From positions 1,073,943 to 1,137,942 of the forward strand of contig NKIZ01000001.1 of assembly GCA_002256425.1 (NCBI GenBank): DNA of 64,000 nt, in the 5' to 3' direction. Source of the DNA: Alphaproteobacteria bacterium PA2 (GTDB lineage Bacteria > Pseudomonadota > Alphaproteobacteria > Caulobacterales > Caulobacteraceae). The notes beneath the pieces are model-generated. The model was not told where the DNA came from and ran no database searches. It saw only the letters and a list, made by a program, of their open reading frames with translations. Position numbers and translations under genes: made by a program. Shown piece after piece: positions 34,635 to 40,768 of this stretch; position 1 is the first letter of the stretch; every line of letters begins with the position of its first letter.

Positions 34635-36050
34635 ATGAGCCTTTCTCCCGACTACCGCCCCGACCCCCGCCTGCCGCGCCTGGGACCCGACTTCGCCGAT
34701 CCGGTTGAAGCTGCGGACTTTCCGGAGACAAGGCTGCGCTATCGCAATCAGAGGGCGGCGGCGACCGTAGGGCTGGATACCCTGAGCGATGAGGAATGGC
34801 GGGACCACTTCGGGCGGTTCAAGCCCCTGCCGGGCAATCTCGAAGCGCCTTTGGCCCAGCGTTATCACGGCCATCAGTTCCGTGTTTACAACCCGGATCT
34901 GGGCGACGGCCGGGGCTTCACCTTCGCCCAGATGCGCGAAGTCGGATCGGACCGCCTGCTGGACCTGGGGACCAAGGGTTCAGGGCCCACGCCCTGGTCG
35001 CGCCAGGGCGACGGACGACTGACCCTAAAGGGCGGGGTCCGCGAGGTTCTGGCCACCGCCATGCTGGAGGCCGTGGGGGTAAACACCAGCAAGACCTTTT
35101 CCCTGATCGAAACCGGCGAAGACCTTCAGCGCAATGACGAGCCGAGCCCGACCCGTTCAGCTGTGATGGTCCGGCTCAGCCATGGGCATGTCCGGTTCGG
35201 CACCTTCCAGCGTCAGGCCTTCCTGGAGCGGCCCGACCAGATCACCCGCCTGGTCGATTATGTGATCGAGACCTACTACCCCGAACTGGAGGCTGCTGCG
35301 GACCGTCGGGCCGCGCTTCTGGAGGCCGTGATTGTGCGGACCGCGGCCATGTGCACGGGCTGGATGGCGGCCGGGTTCGTTCATGGCGTGCTCAATACCG
35401 ACAACATGAACATTACTGGCGAGAGCTTCGACTACGGCCCCTACCGCTTCCTGCCGCGCAATGACCCCAACTTTGTCGCCGCCTATTTCGACCAGAACGG
35501 TCTCTACAGTTTTGGACGGCAGCCCGAGGCGGTGTTCTGGAACCTGCAGCAGCTGGCGGGGTGCCTGGCCTTGGGCGAGGCGGACCAGGAGCCCTTGGTG
35601 GCGGCCCTCAACACCTTTGGCGGCGTCTACCGTAACGCTCTTGCTGCTTCCATGCTCCGTCGCCTGGGGATAGCGCCTGAAAGTCCGGAGGCTGATTTCG
35701 CCCTCGCGGGATCGGCCTTCCGGGCCCTGTCGGTGGGCGGCGATGTCCTGAGGTGGGAGCCCTTCTTCTTCGACTGGTTCTGTGGCGACACCGGTCGCGC
35801 CATGGCCAGTCCCCGGCGGGAGGTCTATGAGGCGCCGGAGTTCGCAGACTTCCGCGCCCTGATCCATGGCCGGACTGCCGACAGACCGGAGCGACTCGAC
35901 GCTCCCTATTTTTCGAACCCCGACCCGCAGGAACTGATTGTCGAAGAGATCGAGGCGATCTGGGCCGATATTGCGGCACGGGACGACTGGTCGGCGTTTG
36001 ATCAGAAGCTTGTGGATCTGGAGGCCACCCGCACGGCCTGGGCGCTCTAG
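34635..36050 (+). CDS. selO: SelO/YdiU family protein adenylyltransferase
   Basis: YHGHQF, LGDGRG, KGSGPTPWSRQGDGR, GFVHGVLNTDNM, FDYGP. Confidence 0.93.
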   Translation: MSLSPDYRPDPRLPRLGPDFADPVEAADFPETRLRYRNQRAAATVGLDTLSDEEWRDHFGRFKPLPGNLEAPLAQRYHGHQFRVYNPDLGDGRGFTFAQMREVGSDRLLDLGTKGSGPTPWSRQGDGRLTLKGGVREVLATAMLEAVGVNTSKTFSLIETGEDLQRNDEPSPTRSAVMVRLSHGHVRFGTFQRQAFLERPDQITRLVDYVIETYYPELEAAADRRAALLEAVIVRTAAMCTGWMAAGFVHGVLNTDNMNITGESFDYGPYRFLPRNDPNFVAAYFDQNGLYSFGRQPEAVFWNLQQLAGCLALGEADQEPLVAALNTFGGVYRNALAASMLRRLGIAPESPEADFALAGSAFRALSVGGDVLRWEPFFFDWFCGDTGRAMASPRREVYEAPEFADFRALIHGRTADRPERLDAPYFSNPDPQELIVEEIEAIWADIAARDDWSAFDQKLVDLEATRTAWAL

Positions 36051-36937
36051 GCCTTTGGTCGGGCCGACCATTGGGCCAGAACGACCCCGCACAGGGCGAT
36101 GGCCCCGCCCAGGGCCTGCATGGGTCCGAAGACTTCACCGAATATGCTCCAGCCCAGCAGGGCCGCAACGACGGGCTGCACAAGAACGGTGACCGAGGCC
36201 GTGGCGGCGGGCAGGCGCCCCAGTGCCCAGGCGATGGAGCCCTGACCCGCCACGTGCATGACCCCAAGACCGATGCAGGCCGCCCAGCCGGTGAGGCTCG
36301 CAGGGATCAGTTGCTCATGCAGGCCCAGCCCCGCCAGGAGAAGAATCGGAGCTCCGGTCAGGCTTGACCAGAACATCAGCCTGGAAGCCCCCATGGTCCG
36401 CCGCGCAGAGCTGACCCCAAGGAAGTAGAGGGCGTACCAGAAGGCGGTCGCGGTGGAGAGGATGTCGCCCAGAAGGGGTGACTTGCCGGCGAACCCAGCG
36501 TCCCGCGCCATGGCCATGATCCAGGCGCCCGCCACTGCAAGGGCCACAGCCACCAGGAAGAGGGGGCTGGGCTTCTGTTTCAGAACCACCCAGGCCACGG
36601 CGGTGACCACAACCGGTGTCAGGTTGGACAGGACAGTCGCCTTGGCGACAGACGTGAAGGCGATGCCATAGTGCCAGAAGCCCAGGTCCAGGGCGAAGGC
36701 CAGGCCGGTGAGCAAGGCGATGGGGGCAAAGCCCGAAATGGCGCCTTCAGCCCGGCGGGTCAGGAGCGCCAGCAAGGGCAGGGCGAAGGTCAGTCGCCAG
36801 AAGCCAGCCATGACGGGTCCGACATCCGAAAGGCGGACCAGGATCGGGCCAACGCCTATGACGCAGGCGCCCAATAGCAGAACCAGCAGGGCCCGGCCTC
36901 GATCTGACTCGTGGGATTGCACAACGGTCTCAGTCAA
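36047..36937 (-). CDS. DMT/EamA family transporter
   Basis: About ten TM segments with a duplicated EamA pattern. Confidence 0.88.
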   Translation of the reverse strand: MTETVVQSHESDRGRALLVLLLGACVIGVGPILVRLSDVGPVMAGFWRLTFALPLLALLTRRAEGAISGFAPIALLTGLAFALDLGFWHYGIAFTSVAKATVLSNLTPVVVTAVAWVVLKQKPSPLFLVAVALAVAGAWIMAMARDAGFAGKSPLLGDILSTATAFWYALYFLGVSSARRTMGASRLMFWSSLTGAPILLLAGLGLHEQLIPASLTGWAACIGLGVMHVAGQGSIAWALGRLPAATASVTVLVQPVVAALLGWSIFGEVFGPMQALGGAIALCGVVLAQWSARPKA

Positions 36938-37781
36938 ACCCGAGGTCCTTTCGAAGGGTTCCGGGTTTCATCCCCGCAGTCCGGAGACTTTGCAGGGTCT
37001 CGGCGTTGTGGCGTTTTGCCAGACGCACGCCGTCGGCGCCACGCAAGAGTGCGTGGTGCCTGTAGACCGGGGTGGGCAATCCAAGCAGGGCCTGGAGCAG
37101 GCGCTGGATATGGGTAGCCTCGAACAGGTCTTCACCCCGGATGATGTGGGTAACCCCCTGCAGGGCGTCATCCACCGTCACGGCCAGATGGTAGGCGACC
37201 CCCACATCCTTCCGCGCGAGGATGATGTCGCCCGCCAGATCGGGCAGGGCGGTGATGAGTCCATGCTGACCTTCCGGGCCGGCGCCTTCCTCTTCAAAGG
37301 TCAGGTCTGTGAAGCTGCCGAGTTCTGATCTGGCGGCCTCGAGGGAGAGCCGCCAGGCAAAGGGTTCTCCCCGGGCGAGGCGTTCGGACTCTTCGGTTGG
37401 CGATAGGGCTGCGCCCCGAAATGCGGGGGCTGTCCCATGGGGCGCGCTGGCCATTTCCTGCGCCACTTCCCGACGGGTCCTGAAACATCGATAGGCCAGC
37501 CCCCTGTCGCAGAGCCTCTCCAGGGCGGCGTGATAATCGGCCATATGCTCGGACTGGCGGCGGACCGGCTCTTCCCAGCCCAAGCCCAGCCAGGACAGGT
37601 CTTCCAGAAGATCAGCTTCAAAGGCTGGACGACAGCGGGTGGTGTCGATGTCTTCAATTCGGAGAATGAATCGCCCGTCCGCCTCCCGGGCGGCGGACCA
37701 GGCTTTCAGGGCTGAATACGCATGCCCGCGATGCAACAGTCCCGTCGGGGAGGGTGCAAAGCGGGTTGTAAATCCGGGCAC
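36930..37781 (-). CDS. gluQ: Glutamyl-Q tRNA(Asp) synthetase
   Basis: RFAPSPTG, HRGH variant of HIGH, LRIEDID, YHLAVTVDD, LAKR; lacks the anticodon-binding domain. Confidence 0.9.
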   Translation of the reverse strand: MPGFTTRFAPSPTGLLHRGHAYSALKAWSAAREADGRFILRIEDIDTTRCRPAFEADLLEDLSWLGLGWEEPVRRQSEHMADYHAALERLCDRGLAYRCFRTRREVAQEMASAPHGTAPAFRGAALSPTEESERLARGEPFAWRLSLEAARSELGSFTDLTFEEEGAGPEGQHGLITALPDLAGDIILARKDVGVAYHLAVTVDDALQGVTHIIRGEDLFEATHIQRLLQALLGLPTPVYRHHALLRGADGVRLAKRHNAETLQSLRTAGMKPGTLRKDLGFD

Positions 37782-37789
37782 CTTGACGG

Positions 37790-38419
37790 CTATTTCGGGG
37801 TCAGGTCCGCAAACACCCGCATGTGGGAGAAGATCCCCCGGAAGAAGGCCTCTTCGCCGCCGACCGCGTCCTTCAGGTGTTCAAACTGTTTGAATGAGGC
37901 CATTTCCGCCAGGCCGTGGGCCGCGCACCAGGCTGCACTGGTGGCCAGTTCCAGACCGATTTCGTCACTGGGGTCAGCGCCAGCTTCGACCAGGGTGTCC
38001 CGCACCTGGCAGTAGGCGCTGTCATCCTGCATGCGGGCATGTTCGGGCAGGTCGTCCTTGTCCCGGGAGCCGTCATACATGACGCGGTACAGGCTTGGAT
38101 TGTCCCGCGCGAAGCAGACATAGGCGACGCCCAGGGCCACCATGCGGTCACCAAGGGATGAAGCTTCCGCCCGGGCCTTGGTCATGGCCTGGTTCAGCAT
38201 TTCCCAGCCTTCATGGGCTACGGCGTCCAGCAGCTCGCCCTTGTCCTTGAAATGATGATAGGGCGCCGCAGGGCTGACGCCGGCTTCCCGGGCGACAGCG
38301 CGCAGGGAGAGGGCGGAGGGACCGTCGCGTTCCAGCAGGCGACGGGCCGCATCAATCAGGGCGCGGCGGAGATCGCCGTGGTGATAGGGCCGGGCTTCGG
38401 CTGCGACAGTTTCTCTCAT
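37790..38419 (-). CDS. TetR/AcrR family regulator with WHG-type C-terminal domain
   Basis: YHHGDLRRALIDAA, LSLRAVAREAGVSPAAPYHHF, AW.AAHG. Alternative GTG start at 38428. Confidence 0.92.
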   Translation of the reverse strand: MRETVAAEARPYHHGDLRRALIDAARRLLERDGPSALSLRAVAREAGVSPAAPYHHFKDKGELLDAVAHEGWEMLNQAMTKARAEASSLGDRMVALGVAYVCFARDNPSLYRVMYDGSRDKDDLPEHARMQDDSAYCQVRDTLVEAGADPSDEIGLELATSAAWCAAHGLAEMASFKQFEHLKDAVGGEEAFFRGIFSHMRVFADLTPK

Positions 38420-38458
38420 GGCTGGCACCGTAATTCTATATCGCTGCCCCGTAAAGGC

Positions 38459-38503
38459 ATCTTGACAATGCTTAGATATCGGCTATCTTAGCATTGTTCA
38501 AAT
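38459..38503. promoter_or_regulatory. Paired 19-bp palindromic operators over overlapping opposite-strand sigma70-type promoters (module 1)
   Basis: ATCTTGACAATGCTTAGAT (38459-77) and ATCTTAGCATTGTTCAAAT (38485-503). Plus strand TTGACA-N16-TATCTT; minus strand TTGAAC-N17-TATCTA. Confidence 0.75.
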
Positions 38504-38550
38504 AACAGATCTCCCCACTCCCCTGGGGCTCAAACTGAAAGGTGTGTGTC

Positions 38551-38652
38551 ATGTCTCTCGCCAACTTCGAGCGTCTCGTCGACCGGATCGTTCCGGCCTT
38601 CCTTCTGGCGCTGGGCCTCGGCGTCGCGGCCGCAATGGCCGGCGCTGTCTAG
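38551..38652 (+). CDS. 33-aa single-TM hydrophobic peptide P1 (not in ORF track)
   Basis: MSLANFERLVDRIVPAFLLALGLGVAAAMAGAV; GAAAGG SD 8 nt upstream; host-like codons; own promoter and terminator. Confidence 0.75.
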   Translation: MSLANFERLVDRIVPAFLLALGLGVAAAMAGAV

Positions 38653-38676
38653 GCTCCTGAAAACTCCGCAAGGAAC

Positions 38677-38703
38677 GGGGCCCCGAAAGGGGCCCTTTTA
38701 TTG
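38677..38703 (+). terminator. Intrinsic terminator after P1
   Basis: GGGCCCC-GAAA-GGGGCCC followed by TTTTATT. Confidence 0.85.
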
Positions 38704-38758
38704 TCCACGAAATCGACCTCAGCCCATACAAAAATGCATGTCGTACATTGTAAAATGT

Positions 38759-38803
38759 AACTGTACACCGTTCAGATTGGCGCTATCCTGCAATTGTCCA
38801 GAC
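38759..38803 (+). promoter_or_regulatory. Paired 19-bp operator-like sites and promoter (module 2)
   Basis: AACTGTACACCGTTCAGAT (38759-77) and ATCCTGCAATTGTCCAGAC (38785-803), exactly 300 bp after the module 1 sites, with the same 7-nt spacer ending GCT. Confidence 0.65.
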
Positions 38804-38849
38804 GGACAAAGGGTTCGGATCCCCCGGCCCAACCCACAGGAGACTTCAC

Positions 38850-38963
38850 ATGACCAACCGTTCCATCCCCGCCTTCGCCCGCGCCGCCGATCTGCTCGTC
38901 GCCATTCTGTTCGTGTCCATGAGCCTGGCCATCGCCGGCGCCTCTACGATCATTGGCGCCTGA
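38850..38963 (+). CDS. 37-aa single-TM hydrophobic peptide P2 (not in ORF track)
   Basis: MTNRSIPAFARAADLLVAILFVSMSLAIAGASTIIGA; AGGAG SD 7 nt upstream; strongly GC3-biased codons. Confidence 0.75.
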   Translation: MTNRSIPAFARAADLLVAILFVSMSLAIAGASTIIGA

Positions 38964-38975
38964 TGCCGGAAGATT

Positions 38976-39021
38976 GTCCTCGCTTGCCCTATTGAGCGGC
39001 GGTCGCCAGGCAAGCGAGGAC
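38976..39021. terminator. 13-bp stem hairpin after P2 (possible terminator or 3' stabiliser)
   Basis: GTCCTCGCTTGCC / GGCAAGCGAGGAC with a 20-nt loop; no U tract. Confidence 0.45.
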
Positions 39022-39203
39022 CTGATCTGCCAGGAGGTGAAATTTTGACAGACCGTCATTCAAGCGCCAAAGAATCAGGCCTATCCTGAACCAGGCTCAA
39101 CCGGACACCGACTGTCCGGGACGCATATTGGACCTCGGGAGACCCGTCTTCAGGCACAGGCTTTCGTTCAACAGCGCGCCTACGCGCACCGGGAGGCCCA
39201 GCC

Positions 39204-39764
39204 ATGGAGGTGCTTAGTCATCCGCCAACTGGGTGGCCGGCCCTTGTGCTGAACGCCGACTTCAGGCCGTTGAGTTATTATCCCCTGTCGCTCTGGCCCT
39301 GGCAGGATGTGATCAAGGCGGTGTTCCTTGATCGCGTTGACGTGGTCTCGACCTACGATCAGACCATCCGGTCACCGTCCTTTGAAATCCAGCTCCCCAG
39401 CGTTGTGGCGCTGAAGAGCTATGTGGCCCAGGACCGGGCTCCGGTCTTCACCCGATTCAACCTGTTTCTCCGGGACTCGTTCTGCTGCCAGTACTGCCGC
39501 AGGGCCGAGGACCTGACCTTTGACCATGTGACCCCCCGGTCACTCGGTGGCCGGACGACCTGGGAGAACATCGTCACCGCCTGCGCCCGGTGCAATTTCA
39601 TCAAGGGCGGCAAGACGCCTGCCCAGGCCAACATGCATCCCTTCGTCAGGCCACGTCAGCCCACCACCTATGAGCTGCAGGAGCGTGGACGGAAGTTCCC
39701 GCCCAACCACCTGCACCGCAGTTGGATGGACTTTCTCTATTGGGACACTGAGCTGGAGGCCTGA
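39204..39764 (+). CDS. HNH endonuclease (McrA/HNH_5-like, ALVLNA family)
   Basis: ALVLNAD N-terminus; CQYC...DHVTPRSLGG...NIVTAC..CN..KG; GGGAGG SD. Confidence 0.9.
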   Translation: MEVLSHPPTGWPALVLNADFRPLSYYPLSLWPWQDVIKAVFLDRVDVVSTYDQTIRSPSFEIQLPSVVALKSYVAQDRAPVFTRFNLFLRDSFCCQYCRRAEDLTFDHVTPRSLGGRTTWENIVTACARCNFIKGGKTPAQANMHPFVRPRQPTTYELQERGRKFPPNHLHRSWMDFLYWDTELEA

Positions 39765-39772
39765 TCCTCTGA

Positions 39773-40690
39773 TCAGGCGACGTCGAACCTGACGGTCGAT
39801 CGCCCGAAGTCCAGGGCGACAGCATCAAACTGCGCCAGAAGGTCCACGCCCAGAATGATGGCGGGCTTGGTCGTGAGATCCCACACCTTGAAGACGCTGG
39901 CTTCGGAGAAGACCACCGGCACATTGCCCAGGGTCAGGCCGCCCAGCCGAAGGAAGGGCAGGTATCCCATTTCCCCAAGAAACTTCTCGCCCACCAGGGA
40001 GGTCAGTTCGACCTGTTCCACATGGGTCCTTCCCGCATCAGCACGGTTCAGAAGCCGCCGCAGCGCCGCATTGCCAATGGAGACCTGCGATCCCGAGTCG
40101 ATCATGGCGCTGATCGGGGCGCCGCTCATGTCGGCGTCCACCATGGTCAACTGACCGGAACGTCGGCGGGCCGGCACCACAACCCGATTGAAGGAGCTGG
40201 TCTCGTGCTTAGGCGGGGCGATCTCGAGGCTCTTGCCCTTGAAGTCCAGGACCAGTCGGCGTGATTTCAGCCAGTCGACTCCCAGAACGCCCCGGGATTC
40301 CTGCGAAGGCATGGGCAGGACGGGAATATTGATCCGCCTCTGGCTCCTGCCGGCAATCTCAAGGCGCTCCACCCGCGCCGTTGGTCGGGGGTGACTGCTG
40401 ACCATGGTGCGAATGGCGACCATGGGGCCCTCAGGAAGATCCAGTTCGTCGGCCAGCTCCCGGGAAATGCAGGAGCGGTTGGCCCCGGTGTCGACCAGGA
40501 AGTTGAAAGGACCCTTGCCGTTGATCAGGACCGGCGCCACCAGACGTGTCGCCTTGTCACGGGTAGCCGGAACCCGGCTGGCGGTTTCATTGGGCGAGAC
40601 CTCGTCCTGCTCCTGGGCGAAAGCCGTCAGGGGCGCGAGGGCGCCTGTCGCTGCGAGCATGTGGGCGAGTGAACGTCGACTGATCGTCAT
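39773..40690 (-). CDS. Two-domain retropepsin-like aspartyl protease with Tat signal
   Basis: SRRSL Tat motif; FLVDTGA and AMIDSGS catalytic motifs; ILGVDLL. Confidence 0.88.
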   Translation of the reverse strand: MTISRRSLAHMLAATGALAPLTAFAQEQDEVSPNETASRVPATRDKATRLVAPVLINGKGPFNFLVDTGANRSCISRELADELDLPEGPMVAIRTMVSSHPRPTARVERLEIAGRSQRRINIPVLPMPSQESRGVLGVDWLKSRRLVLDFKGKSLEIAPPKHETSSFNRVVVPARRRSGQLTMVDADMSGAPISAMIDSGSQVSIGNAALRRLLNRADAGRTHVEQVELTSLVGEKFLGEMGYLPFLRLGGLTLGNVPVVFSEASVFKVWDLTTKPAIILGVDLLAQFDAVALDFGRSTVRFDVA

Positions 40691-40768
40691 GTCCGAAAAC
40701 CCTTTTTGATACCGCAGCCTAACTTCGAATGGCCGACCATTCAAATTAAACTCCGGCAAGGCCGTGCG

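Follow-up and report, generated by a model that had tools for sequence, protein, structure and literature searches.

A family of predicted single-helix microproteins encoded divergently from a TetR-family regulator gene in Caulobacterales

INTRODUCTION

Do two very short open reading frames (ORFs) beside a TetR-family regulator gene encode proteins and, if so, of what kind and to what end? The question is raised by a locus of Alphaproteobacteria bacterium PA2 (Caulobacteraceae; GenBank assembly GCA_002256425.1), within a stretch of 64,000 nucleotides (nt) of contig NKIZ01000001.1 (positions 1,073,943 to 1,137,942, forward strand). This whole stretch is referred to here as the window, and all coordinates are positions within it. 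A preliminary description made from the sequence had picked out the two ORFs, here P1 and P2, as unannotated and mutually similar microproteins, each with a single transmembrane (TM) helix. By comparing the locus with its relatives, we find that P1 and P2 represent a new family of a known kind, the bacterial single-helix microproteins, which is uncharacterized so far.

RESULTS

Coding status and conservation

P1 runs on the forward strand from an ATG at 38551 to a TAG stop at 38652 and encodes 33 amino acids (aa; MSLANFERLVDRIVPAFLLALGLGVAAAMAGAV), laid out as MSLANFERLVDR followed by a hydrophobic tail of 21 residues. On the same strand, P2 runs from an ATG at 38850 to a TGA stop at 38963 and encodes 37 aa (MTNRSIPAFARAADLLVAILFVSMSLAIAGASTIIGA), with MTNRSIPAFARAAD ahead of a 23-residue hydrophobic tail. 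Reading the sequence confirmed both ORFs exactly as the preliminary description had quoted them. It had also credited both with good Shine-Dalgarno (SD) sequences, and these are present at normal spacing: an SD-like AAGGTG stands 6 bases ahead of the P1 ATG, and AGGAG, read from the sequence at 38838–38842 on the forward strand, stands 7 nt ahead of that of P2, a spacing shared by the AAGGA-type SDs of other genes of the P2 type. ORF, start and SD are conserved across genera. GC content at codon positions 1/2/3 was 0.81/0.47/0.81 in P1 and 0.58/0.56/0.86 in P2, matching neighboring real genes (~0.70/0.48/0.77) and agreeing with the host-typical codons noticed at the outset. Three longer ORFs that overlap the pair (38546–38995, forward strand, 149 aa; 38549–38731, reverse strand, 60 aa; and 38772–39059, reverse strand, 95 aa) had a flat or non-coding GC1/2/3 pattern and were rejected. 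A GTG at 38542 was likewise rejected as the start of P1, as conservation centers on the ATG with its SD.

Relatives of the locus were collected with the protein of the divergent TetR-family gene as anchor. This gave 80 loci from distinct species, mostly Phenylobacterium with some Caulobacter, and with the window a total of 81 sources; the best TetR-anchored relative, from P. zucineum, was 96% identical, a value that puts the window in Phenylobacterium. An iterated profile search over all six-frame stop-to-stop segments then found family members in 78 of the 81, in 1–5 copies, always encoded divergently from TetR and in the interval that separates it from HNH. Of the three misses, L033 is a contig edge, and the Caulobacter loci L053 and L075 hold sub-threshold copies that are visible by eye. 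A further 34 metagenome loci also carry family homologues. The preliminary description had envisaged a reach into Sphingomonadales, which did not materialize: all named organisms recovered were Caulobacterales, mainly Phenylobacterium and Caulobacter.

The members fall into two subtypes. Type A is P1-like, with the pattern MSLxxFERxFDRxAPxxLLxLGL..., and 77 type A genes, orthologous to P1 and at its position, were found in the 81 sources. Type B is P2-like and has the common form MSIxxNRILDxxxSFAIVALGLTLAGATAxxGA. One Phenylobacterium metagenome-assembled genome (L058, reverse strand, ~280–1750 in locus coordinates) carries five tandem members, three of which are short copies of 29 aa (MTFMTFFDRIAPMFILVLGMVPVAGALGV type); this array shows local amplification of the family.

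Selection was measured as the number of substitutions per codon position (1/2/3) in independent closest pairs. Type A pairs gave 83/55/164 (chi-square p = 1.5e-14) and type B pairs 102/55/195 (p = 1.6e-19). Individual comparisons gave the same picture. Between the window and locus L001, P1 differed at 2/2/16 positions, with 15 synonymous against 4 amino-acid-changing codons, and P2 differed at 6/0/15; between loci L002 and L003, the P2 copies differed at 0/0/7, all of them synonymous. Length differences in the family protein alignments are whole-residue gaps. The check on homologues and selection put forward in the preliminary description therefore came out in favor of coding, with ORFs intact across genera, substitutions strongly biased to third positions and indels in frame. 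Judged by these substitution patterns, P1 and P2 are genuine, intact protein-coding genes under protein-level purifying selection.

Relationship and predicted architecture of the two proteins

P1 and P2 are 24% identical to each other, a value that is insignificant by itself. Their ungapped match does contain every element listed in the preliminary description, namely F-x-R-x-x-D-x-x-V, L-x-x-A-x-A and a Gly-Ala near the C-terminus. Profiles gave the stronger result. When all 1,551 six-frame segments from the window were scored with one built from P1-type orthologues only, without the window, P2 came second (E = 0.015), and one built from P2-type sequences without the P2 clade recovered both P2 (E = 9e-7) and P1 (E = 1.1e-5). 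Profile–profile comparison of type A against type B with hhalign returned a probability of 97.5% (E = 5e-12). By this profile evidence, the two genes are homologous paralogues, which goes beyond mere similarity. A profile search of the 64-kb window yielded no further copy of the family.

The proteins have a simple layout. The uncharged C-terminal tail was measured in 349 family sequences: its median length is 22 residues (5–95% range, 21–23), and it reaches the stop codon. Ala makes up 27% of it, Leu 19%, Val 16% and Gly 13%, and Gly is also the usual residue at the penultimate position. Ahead of it lies an N-terminal segment of 12–14 residues with two basic (Arg) and two acidic residues and the motif F-E-R-x-F-D-R. 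Here Asp11 is invariant, and conservation of F6, E7, R8, F10 and R12 reaches 90% or more. AlphaFold2, run with the family alignment, modeled P1 as one helix spanning residues 3–32 (pLDDT 95.9). The fixed length of the hydrophobic tail and this high-confidence single helix both uphold the single-TM reading proposed earlier. The 21–23 uncharged C-terminal residues thus very probably form one TM helix that ends at the stop codon. Because of the positive-inside rule, the short N-terminus with F-E-R-x-F-D-R very probably sits on the cytoplasmic face, giving an N-in/C-out topology with no periplasmic part.

This layout bears on a possibility named in the preliminary description, that of a secreted or processed signaling peptide. 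Widened, the reading also takes in bacteriocins and precursors of ribosomally synthesized and post-translationally modified peptides. The N-terminus would then serve as leader, and the hydrophobic part would be the core that is exported. This division suits the pattern of conservation, with a conserved N-terminus and a C-terminal half that varies more and is rich in Gly, Ala, Thr and Ser. The hydrophobic segment, however, is of fixed membrane-spanning length, and a helix running to the stop codon leaves no mature peptide. There is no cleavage motif between leader and core and no signal-peptidase or double-glycine layout; the annotated genes around the locus include no peptidase-ABC exporter, modification enzyme or other processing or export gene, and a neighboring aspartyl protease is present in only 4 of 80 loci. 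We consider a secreted product very improbable.

Promoters, operators and transcript signals

A sigma-70-like promoter, TTGACA-16 nt-TATCTT, precedes P1 on the forward strand (38462–38489). It matches the consensus at 10 of 12 positions and is the sole such match in 38300–39300; TTGAC and CTATCT are kept in all aligned loci, Caulobacter included. Lying over the −35/−10 spacer and the −10 box is a palindromic operator with 14-nt arms that are 93% complementary, ACAATGCTTAGATA (38465–38478) and TATCTTAGCATTGT (38484–38497). The arms are 5 nt apart, which is the correct spacing; an operator search at 6-nt spacing found nothing. Both the promoter and the palindrome are maintained across Phenylobacterium and Caulobacter, C. 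vibrioides among the latter. In more general form, a box [CT]AGAT-N5-9-ATCT[ATC]A occurs ~80 nt upstream of 49 of 77 type A and 49 of 65 type B genes, and it is specific, in that 98 of its 125 matches in 1.27 Mb lie upstream of family genes. The adjacent TetR is the presumed binder of this palindrome and would repress both peptide genes, a conclusion that we draw with moderate confidence from the sequence. SOS/LexA control was considered and rejected, as no GTTC-N7-GTTC box was seen by eye in the P1 or P2 promoter.

The 5′ untranslated region (UTR) of P1 is ~55 nt long. It includes a small hairpin at 38513–38528 (forward strand) with a CCCCA/TGGGG stem and a C-rich loop, for which RNAalifold gave four pairs, every one of them showing compensatory double changes in some sequences. 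When 38 orthologous 5′ UTRs were folded, this 4-bp hairpin formed upstream, and the SD and start codon were unpaired. The translation-initiation region of type A genes, AAGGTGTGTGTC ATG TCT CTC GC in P1 (38539–38561, forward strand), is conserved at the nucleotide level: AAGGTGTGTGT is identical in 38 of 38 type A sequences, and the rare codon TCT is the second codon in 64 of 77 type A genes, versus 9 of 225 Ser codons elsewhere in the family. In type A mRNA, the element includes GUGUGUGUC and UCUCUC. The motif is unique in the window, which contains no complement of it, and it recurs in second-copy paralogues and distant relatives. It could be a binding site for a small RNA (sRNA) or a protein, or could reflect optimized initiation. 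The P1 unit closes with an intrinsic terminator at 38677–38703 (forward strand), in which a T run comes after a GC stem of 8 bp; equivalents stand after type A genes in other loci.

P2 has a promoter and operator block of its own on the forward strand (38726–38809), and many loci retain this block ahead of their type B genes. An operator-like TTCAGAT-N5-CTATCCTGCA, which includes a −10-like GCTATCCT, lies at 38771–38792, and in type B genes the palindromic box stands at the same distance from the ATG as in type A. The block also holds three AT-rich palindromes, upstream of the promoter and over it, ATACAAAAATGCAT (38726–38739), TACATTGTAAAATGTA (38744–38759) and TTGTCCAGACGGACAA (38794–38809), whose conservation suggests additional sites for regulators or a hairpin in the 5′ RNA. 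Downstream of P2, a GC-rich hairpin at 38976–39021 (forward strand) is a perfect inverted repeat of 13 bp that encloses a 20-nt loop and lacks a T run. Analogues follow type B genes elsewhere, and the hairpin is probably the 3′ end or a stabilizer of the P2 transcript.

Contigs from a wetland metatranscriptome, derived from a relative that is 90–95% identical, cover 38512–38706 and 38729–38911 and do not cover the TetR side. Of the 12 differences listed between window and contig, 9 fall on third positions of P1. These contigs are suggestive, being compatible with a transcript that starts from the predicted promoter. The RNA run of the source sample was poly-A selected, empty at the locus and uninformative. 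A look for laboratory RNA-seq near-identical to the Caulobacter locus L057 found none. As a separate observation, 38300–39300 was 98% word-identical to an “algae metagenome” run at ~430× depth, and the DNA probably comes from a Phenylobacterium that lives in association with cultured algae.

Given this much nucleotide-level conservation, the region might act without its proteins, as a cis-regulatory leader or a small RNA in which the ORFs are incidental or are translated only as leaders of genes further downstream, HNH for example. Nucleotide conservation in the type A initiation region does exceed what the protein needs, and the sequence after P2 holds first a hairpin lacking a T run and then HNH, in the same orientation. 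This account has to contend with the strong third-position bias and with amino-acid motifs that two diverged paralogue types share while using different codons. P1, moreover, has its own terminator, an Rfam scan of the region matched no family, conserved RNA structure is scant, and in C. vibrioides two unrelated genes stand between peptide and HNH. A role without the proteins has, in our judgment, hardly any likelihood.

The main rival reading is that P1 and P2 are repressor-controlled membrane toxins of a TisB-like or type I-like kind. Once repression is lifted, the helices would form oligomers in the inner membrane and run down the proton-motive force, with slower growth or dormancy as the outcome, and an RNA or TetR would keep the genes silent. 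The resemblance to TisB/IstR-1, Ibs, Ldr, ShoB and DinQ is plain: all are hydrophobic peptides of 20–40 aa, often in tandem copies, and the tisB and dinQ promoters are likewise under a repressor, LexA (PMC3567139 for DinQ). P1 and P2 are small hydrophobic helices with many small residues, and a 21–23-residue helix in a peptide of 33–37 aa is what a type I toxin would have. The family also forms tandem arrays of 1–5 paralogues, each promoter is tightly covered by an operator, and the conserved type A initiation region is a possible sRNA target. The SD and start codon, however, are unpaired in the fold of the type A 5′ UTR, whereas a type I toxin mRNA hides its SD. Conserved blocks between or after the ORFs comprise terminators and sense promoters and no antisense promoter, and we found no sign of an antisense antitoxin RNA, with no minus-strand promoter-like site in 38300–39300, no complement of the type A leader in the window and no Rfam match to the region. 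Inheritance is strictly vertical and syntenic across genera, the helix is without a charged residue, and a near-invariant cytoplasmic motif exceeds the apparent need of a pore-former. On balance, we think it unlikely that P1 and P2 are toxins.

The TetR gene and its neighborhood

The TetR-family regulator (37790–38419, reverse strand; Pfam TetR_N and TetR_C_33) is divergent from the peptide genes, with its 5′ end 131 nt from the ATG of P1. It is the first gene of an operon that continues on the same strand with a GluQ-RS-like gene (36930–37781; Pfam tRNA-synt_1c) and an EamA transporter gene (36047–36937; Pfam EamA). The three ORFs abut or overlap as in one operon, and their order is kept in most relatives. 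TetR is adjacent and divergent to the peptides at 80 of 80 TetR-anchored loci. To remove the bias of this anchoring, loci were also retrieved with the peptides as anchor, by scanning metagenomes with 20 members that contain FERFFDR. At 25 of 25 peptide-anchored metagenome loci with at least 600 nt upstream, a TetR_C_33 gene was again divergent and upstream, as it was in three exact-protein look-ups.

This constant partnership invites a reading in which the peptides are membrane-tethered feedback partners. The cytoplasmic F-E-R-x-F-D-R would bind TetR or another product of the operon and hold it at the membrane, and build-up of the peptide would reinforce or reset derepression. TetR is the only invariably linked gene, with gluQ behind it; the conserved motif faces the cytoplasm on the predicted topology; and the peptides persist in loci that lack EamA. 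Regulation, on the other hand, explains the adjacency of the regulator more simply than binding does, and we regard a feedback role as highly unlikely.

In the TetR-anchored set, the gene order is HNH, peptides, TetR, GluQ, EamA and SelO, with HNH at 72/80 loci, GluQ at 80/80, EamA at 64/80 and SelO at 63/80. Some relatives have a CBS-domain gene inserted in the TetR-GluQRS-EamA operon. It is unusual for a tRNA-modification enzyme to be placed under a regulator of the TetR family. The closest solved TetR structures, 3on2 and 3cjd, are both uncharacterized.

The HNH-domain gene (39204–39764, forward strand; 186 aa) matches Pfam HNH/HNH_5, with weak matches to IscB and PtuB domains. Its protein is 74–94% identical across the genus, more conserved than TetR, and is almost always encoded downstream of the peptides; at the peptide-anchored metagenome loci, it is downstream wherever the contig reaches. 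Because of the two genes that intervene in C. vibrioides, we treat HNH as a neighbor outside the peptide unit. The gene that adjoins HNH encodes the retropepsin-like aspartyl protease (39773–40759, reverse strand), which has a signal-like N-terminus; a link between it and the peptides was rejected on the strength of its rare occurrence.

Status in databases and literature

The description of P1 and P2 as unannotated proved right in one respect and wrong in another: no family model covers them, while the exact P2 has been gene-called in public assemblies and Caulobacter orthologues stand in RefSeq as “hypothetical protein” (e.g., WP_004622156.1). Searched against Pfam and NCBIfam, P1 and P2 matched no family at E ≤ 10, and PADLOC gave no hit. 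The family profile compared with the PDB returned chance matches only (E ~1). Full-text literature searches and the supplements of a Caulobacter ribosome-profiling paper (PMC4117421) yielded nothing on the family.

The protein profile search was run with type A and type B sequences that had been fused in pairs and aligned. Among 5.8 billion proteins, 226 matched at E ≤ 0.01; these are without a Pfam domain, and those that bear names are called “hypothetical” or, spuriously, “NuoK”. A HMMER scan of 1.84 billion cluster representatives (50% identity) found 196 clusters. Members of the family are 31–38 residues long, and proteins in the best 150 of the 196 clusters measure 31–118 aa, the longer ones being upstream-extended or read-through calls; none among these 150 is a large protein with the segment as a domain. 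Gene callers often place the start too far upstream (P0033, P0045, P0063, P0094, P0107 and others), so that the operator or promoter is translated into “YLSIVQ...” or “KVCVM” N-termini, and JGI labels some members “NADH:ubiquinone oxidoreductase subunit K”. Both the label and the extended starts are annotation artifacts.

DISCUSSION

What, then, might two conserved single-helix proteins do under a TetR-type operator? The preliminary description had named tuning of transporters or enzymes and type I toxicity as candidate roles, without taking in the divergent TetR gene and the shared palindromic operator. We give about an even chance to the reading that P1 and P2 are repressor-controlled, tail-anchored inner-membrane microproteins that act on a partner in the membrane or at its cytoplasmic face. 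In this scheme, the neighboring TetR would repress both peptide genes via the palindrome until a ligand releases it. The strong promoter and open SD would then give a burst of peptide, along with the TetR-GluQRS-EamA operon, and the peptide would insert into the inner membrane as a tail-anchored helix. There, the helix, rich in Ala and Gly, would find its partner in a membrane protein against which it packs and which the cytoplasmic F-E-R-x-F-D-R would modulate. By analogy, the mode of action may be AcrZ-, MgrB- or sarcolipin-like. The co-regulated EamA exporter might be the nearest candidate partner, and the partner may also lie elsewhere.

Several known systems provide points of comparison. 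AcrZ of E. coli (49 aa) is a single-helix inner-membrane accessory subunit of the AcrB efflux pump that is co-regulated with the transporter through common transcription factors and acts by helix packing. P1 and P2 are similarly placed, their regulatory region being common to them and to an operon in which the EamA exporter is usually found. They are nevertheless not members of the AcrZ family, having no sequence similarity to it and no Pfam or NCBIfam match; AcrZ has a cytoplasmic C-terminal tail where the P1/P2 family ends with its helix, and the exporter is not always present at P1/P2-type loci. Sarcolipin, phospholamban and KdpF function by lateral binding to a pump. They resemble P1 and P2 in having a short cytoplasmic N-terminus and one helix that ends at or near the C-terminus, but are unrelated in sequence and lineage, and no P-type ATPase or pump is linked to the P1/P2 locus except EamA.

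SidA of Caulobacter crescentus, like DidA, is a tiny inner-membrane protein expressed from a stress-induced, repressor-controlled promoter, and it binds a membrane protein of the division machinery. It shares with P1 and P2 the bacterial group and the small size, as well as the location and the repressor control predicted for them, and differs in its regulator, which is LexA/SOS rather than a TetR-type palindrome. A summary of the checkpoint concept is given in bioRxiv 10.1101/391730. MgrB, MgtS and PmrR represent single-pass proteins of ~30–50 aa with a dedicated regulator that modulate a sensor kinase, a transporter or an enzyme (PMC8534201). P1 and P2 have no sequence similarity to these in Pfam or NCBIfam; the functional segments of the MgrB type are periplasmic or C-terminal, whereas the non-membrane part of P1 and P2 is the N-terminus only. 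The toxins of the TisB type differ in turn by their SD-occluding 5′ UTR, which the P1/P2 family lacks, and the family is further set apart by its vertical, syntenic inheritance and conserved cytoplasmic motif.

Some of our observations weigh against P1 and P2 as repressor-controlled membrane microproteins with a partner. EamA is absent from the operon in 16 of 80 loci, including most Caulobacter, and its candidacy as the partner is weakened because the peptides persist there. Binding of TetR to the palindrome is deduced from adjacency and symmetry, and another regulator could use the same site. At P2, the right half-site of the operator has drifted in the window, with four mismatches by eye, which puts it outside our 3-mismatch search. 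The RNA support consists of low-depth metatranscriptome contigs that may include DNA carry-over, and tandem arrays are typical of type I toxins too. Finally, whole-family Nei-Gojobori pN/pS is not low (type A, 0.65; type B, 0.93), a measure that is uninformative here, with selection clear only in close pairs, because synonymous sites are saturated and constrained by GC3, paralogues are mixed and hydrophobic exchanges are tolerated in the TM segment.

In a bolder version of the preferred reading, a TetR sensor conserved throughout the Caulobacteraceae, C. crescentus included, would have the peptides as its dedicated output at the membrane and possibly also as its feedback partner. F-E-R-x-F-D-R would bind TetR or a target on the cytoplasmic face and couple the state of the membrane to transcription, and a second, post-transcriptional layer would operate at AAGGUGUGUGUC-AUG-UCU-CUC of type A mRNAs. 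We hold this version to be distinctly unlikely; if true, repressor, tail-anchored microprotein and dedicated RNA element would together form a new regulatory module.

Annotation systematically overlooks small membrane proteins, and the regulator is known for only a few of them. The present family is tractable in this respect, with clear selection, a recognizable motif, a fixed context and a candidate repressor and operator, and the comparative data provide a ready annotation profile for ~200 sequence clusters that are inconsistently called. The model organism Caulobacter crescentus/vibrioides has the family too, and gene deletion, tagging, knock-out of tetR and the search for partners are routine in that system. 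Solving the role of these proteins would assign a function to the conserved TetR-GluQRS-EamA locus and could add an example of a microprotein that tunes the membrane.

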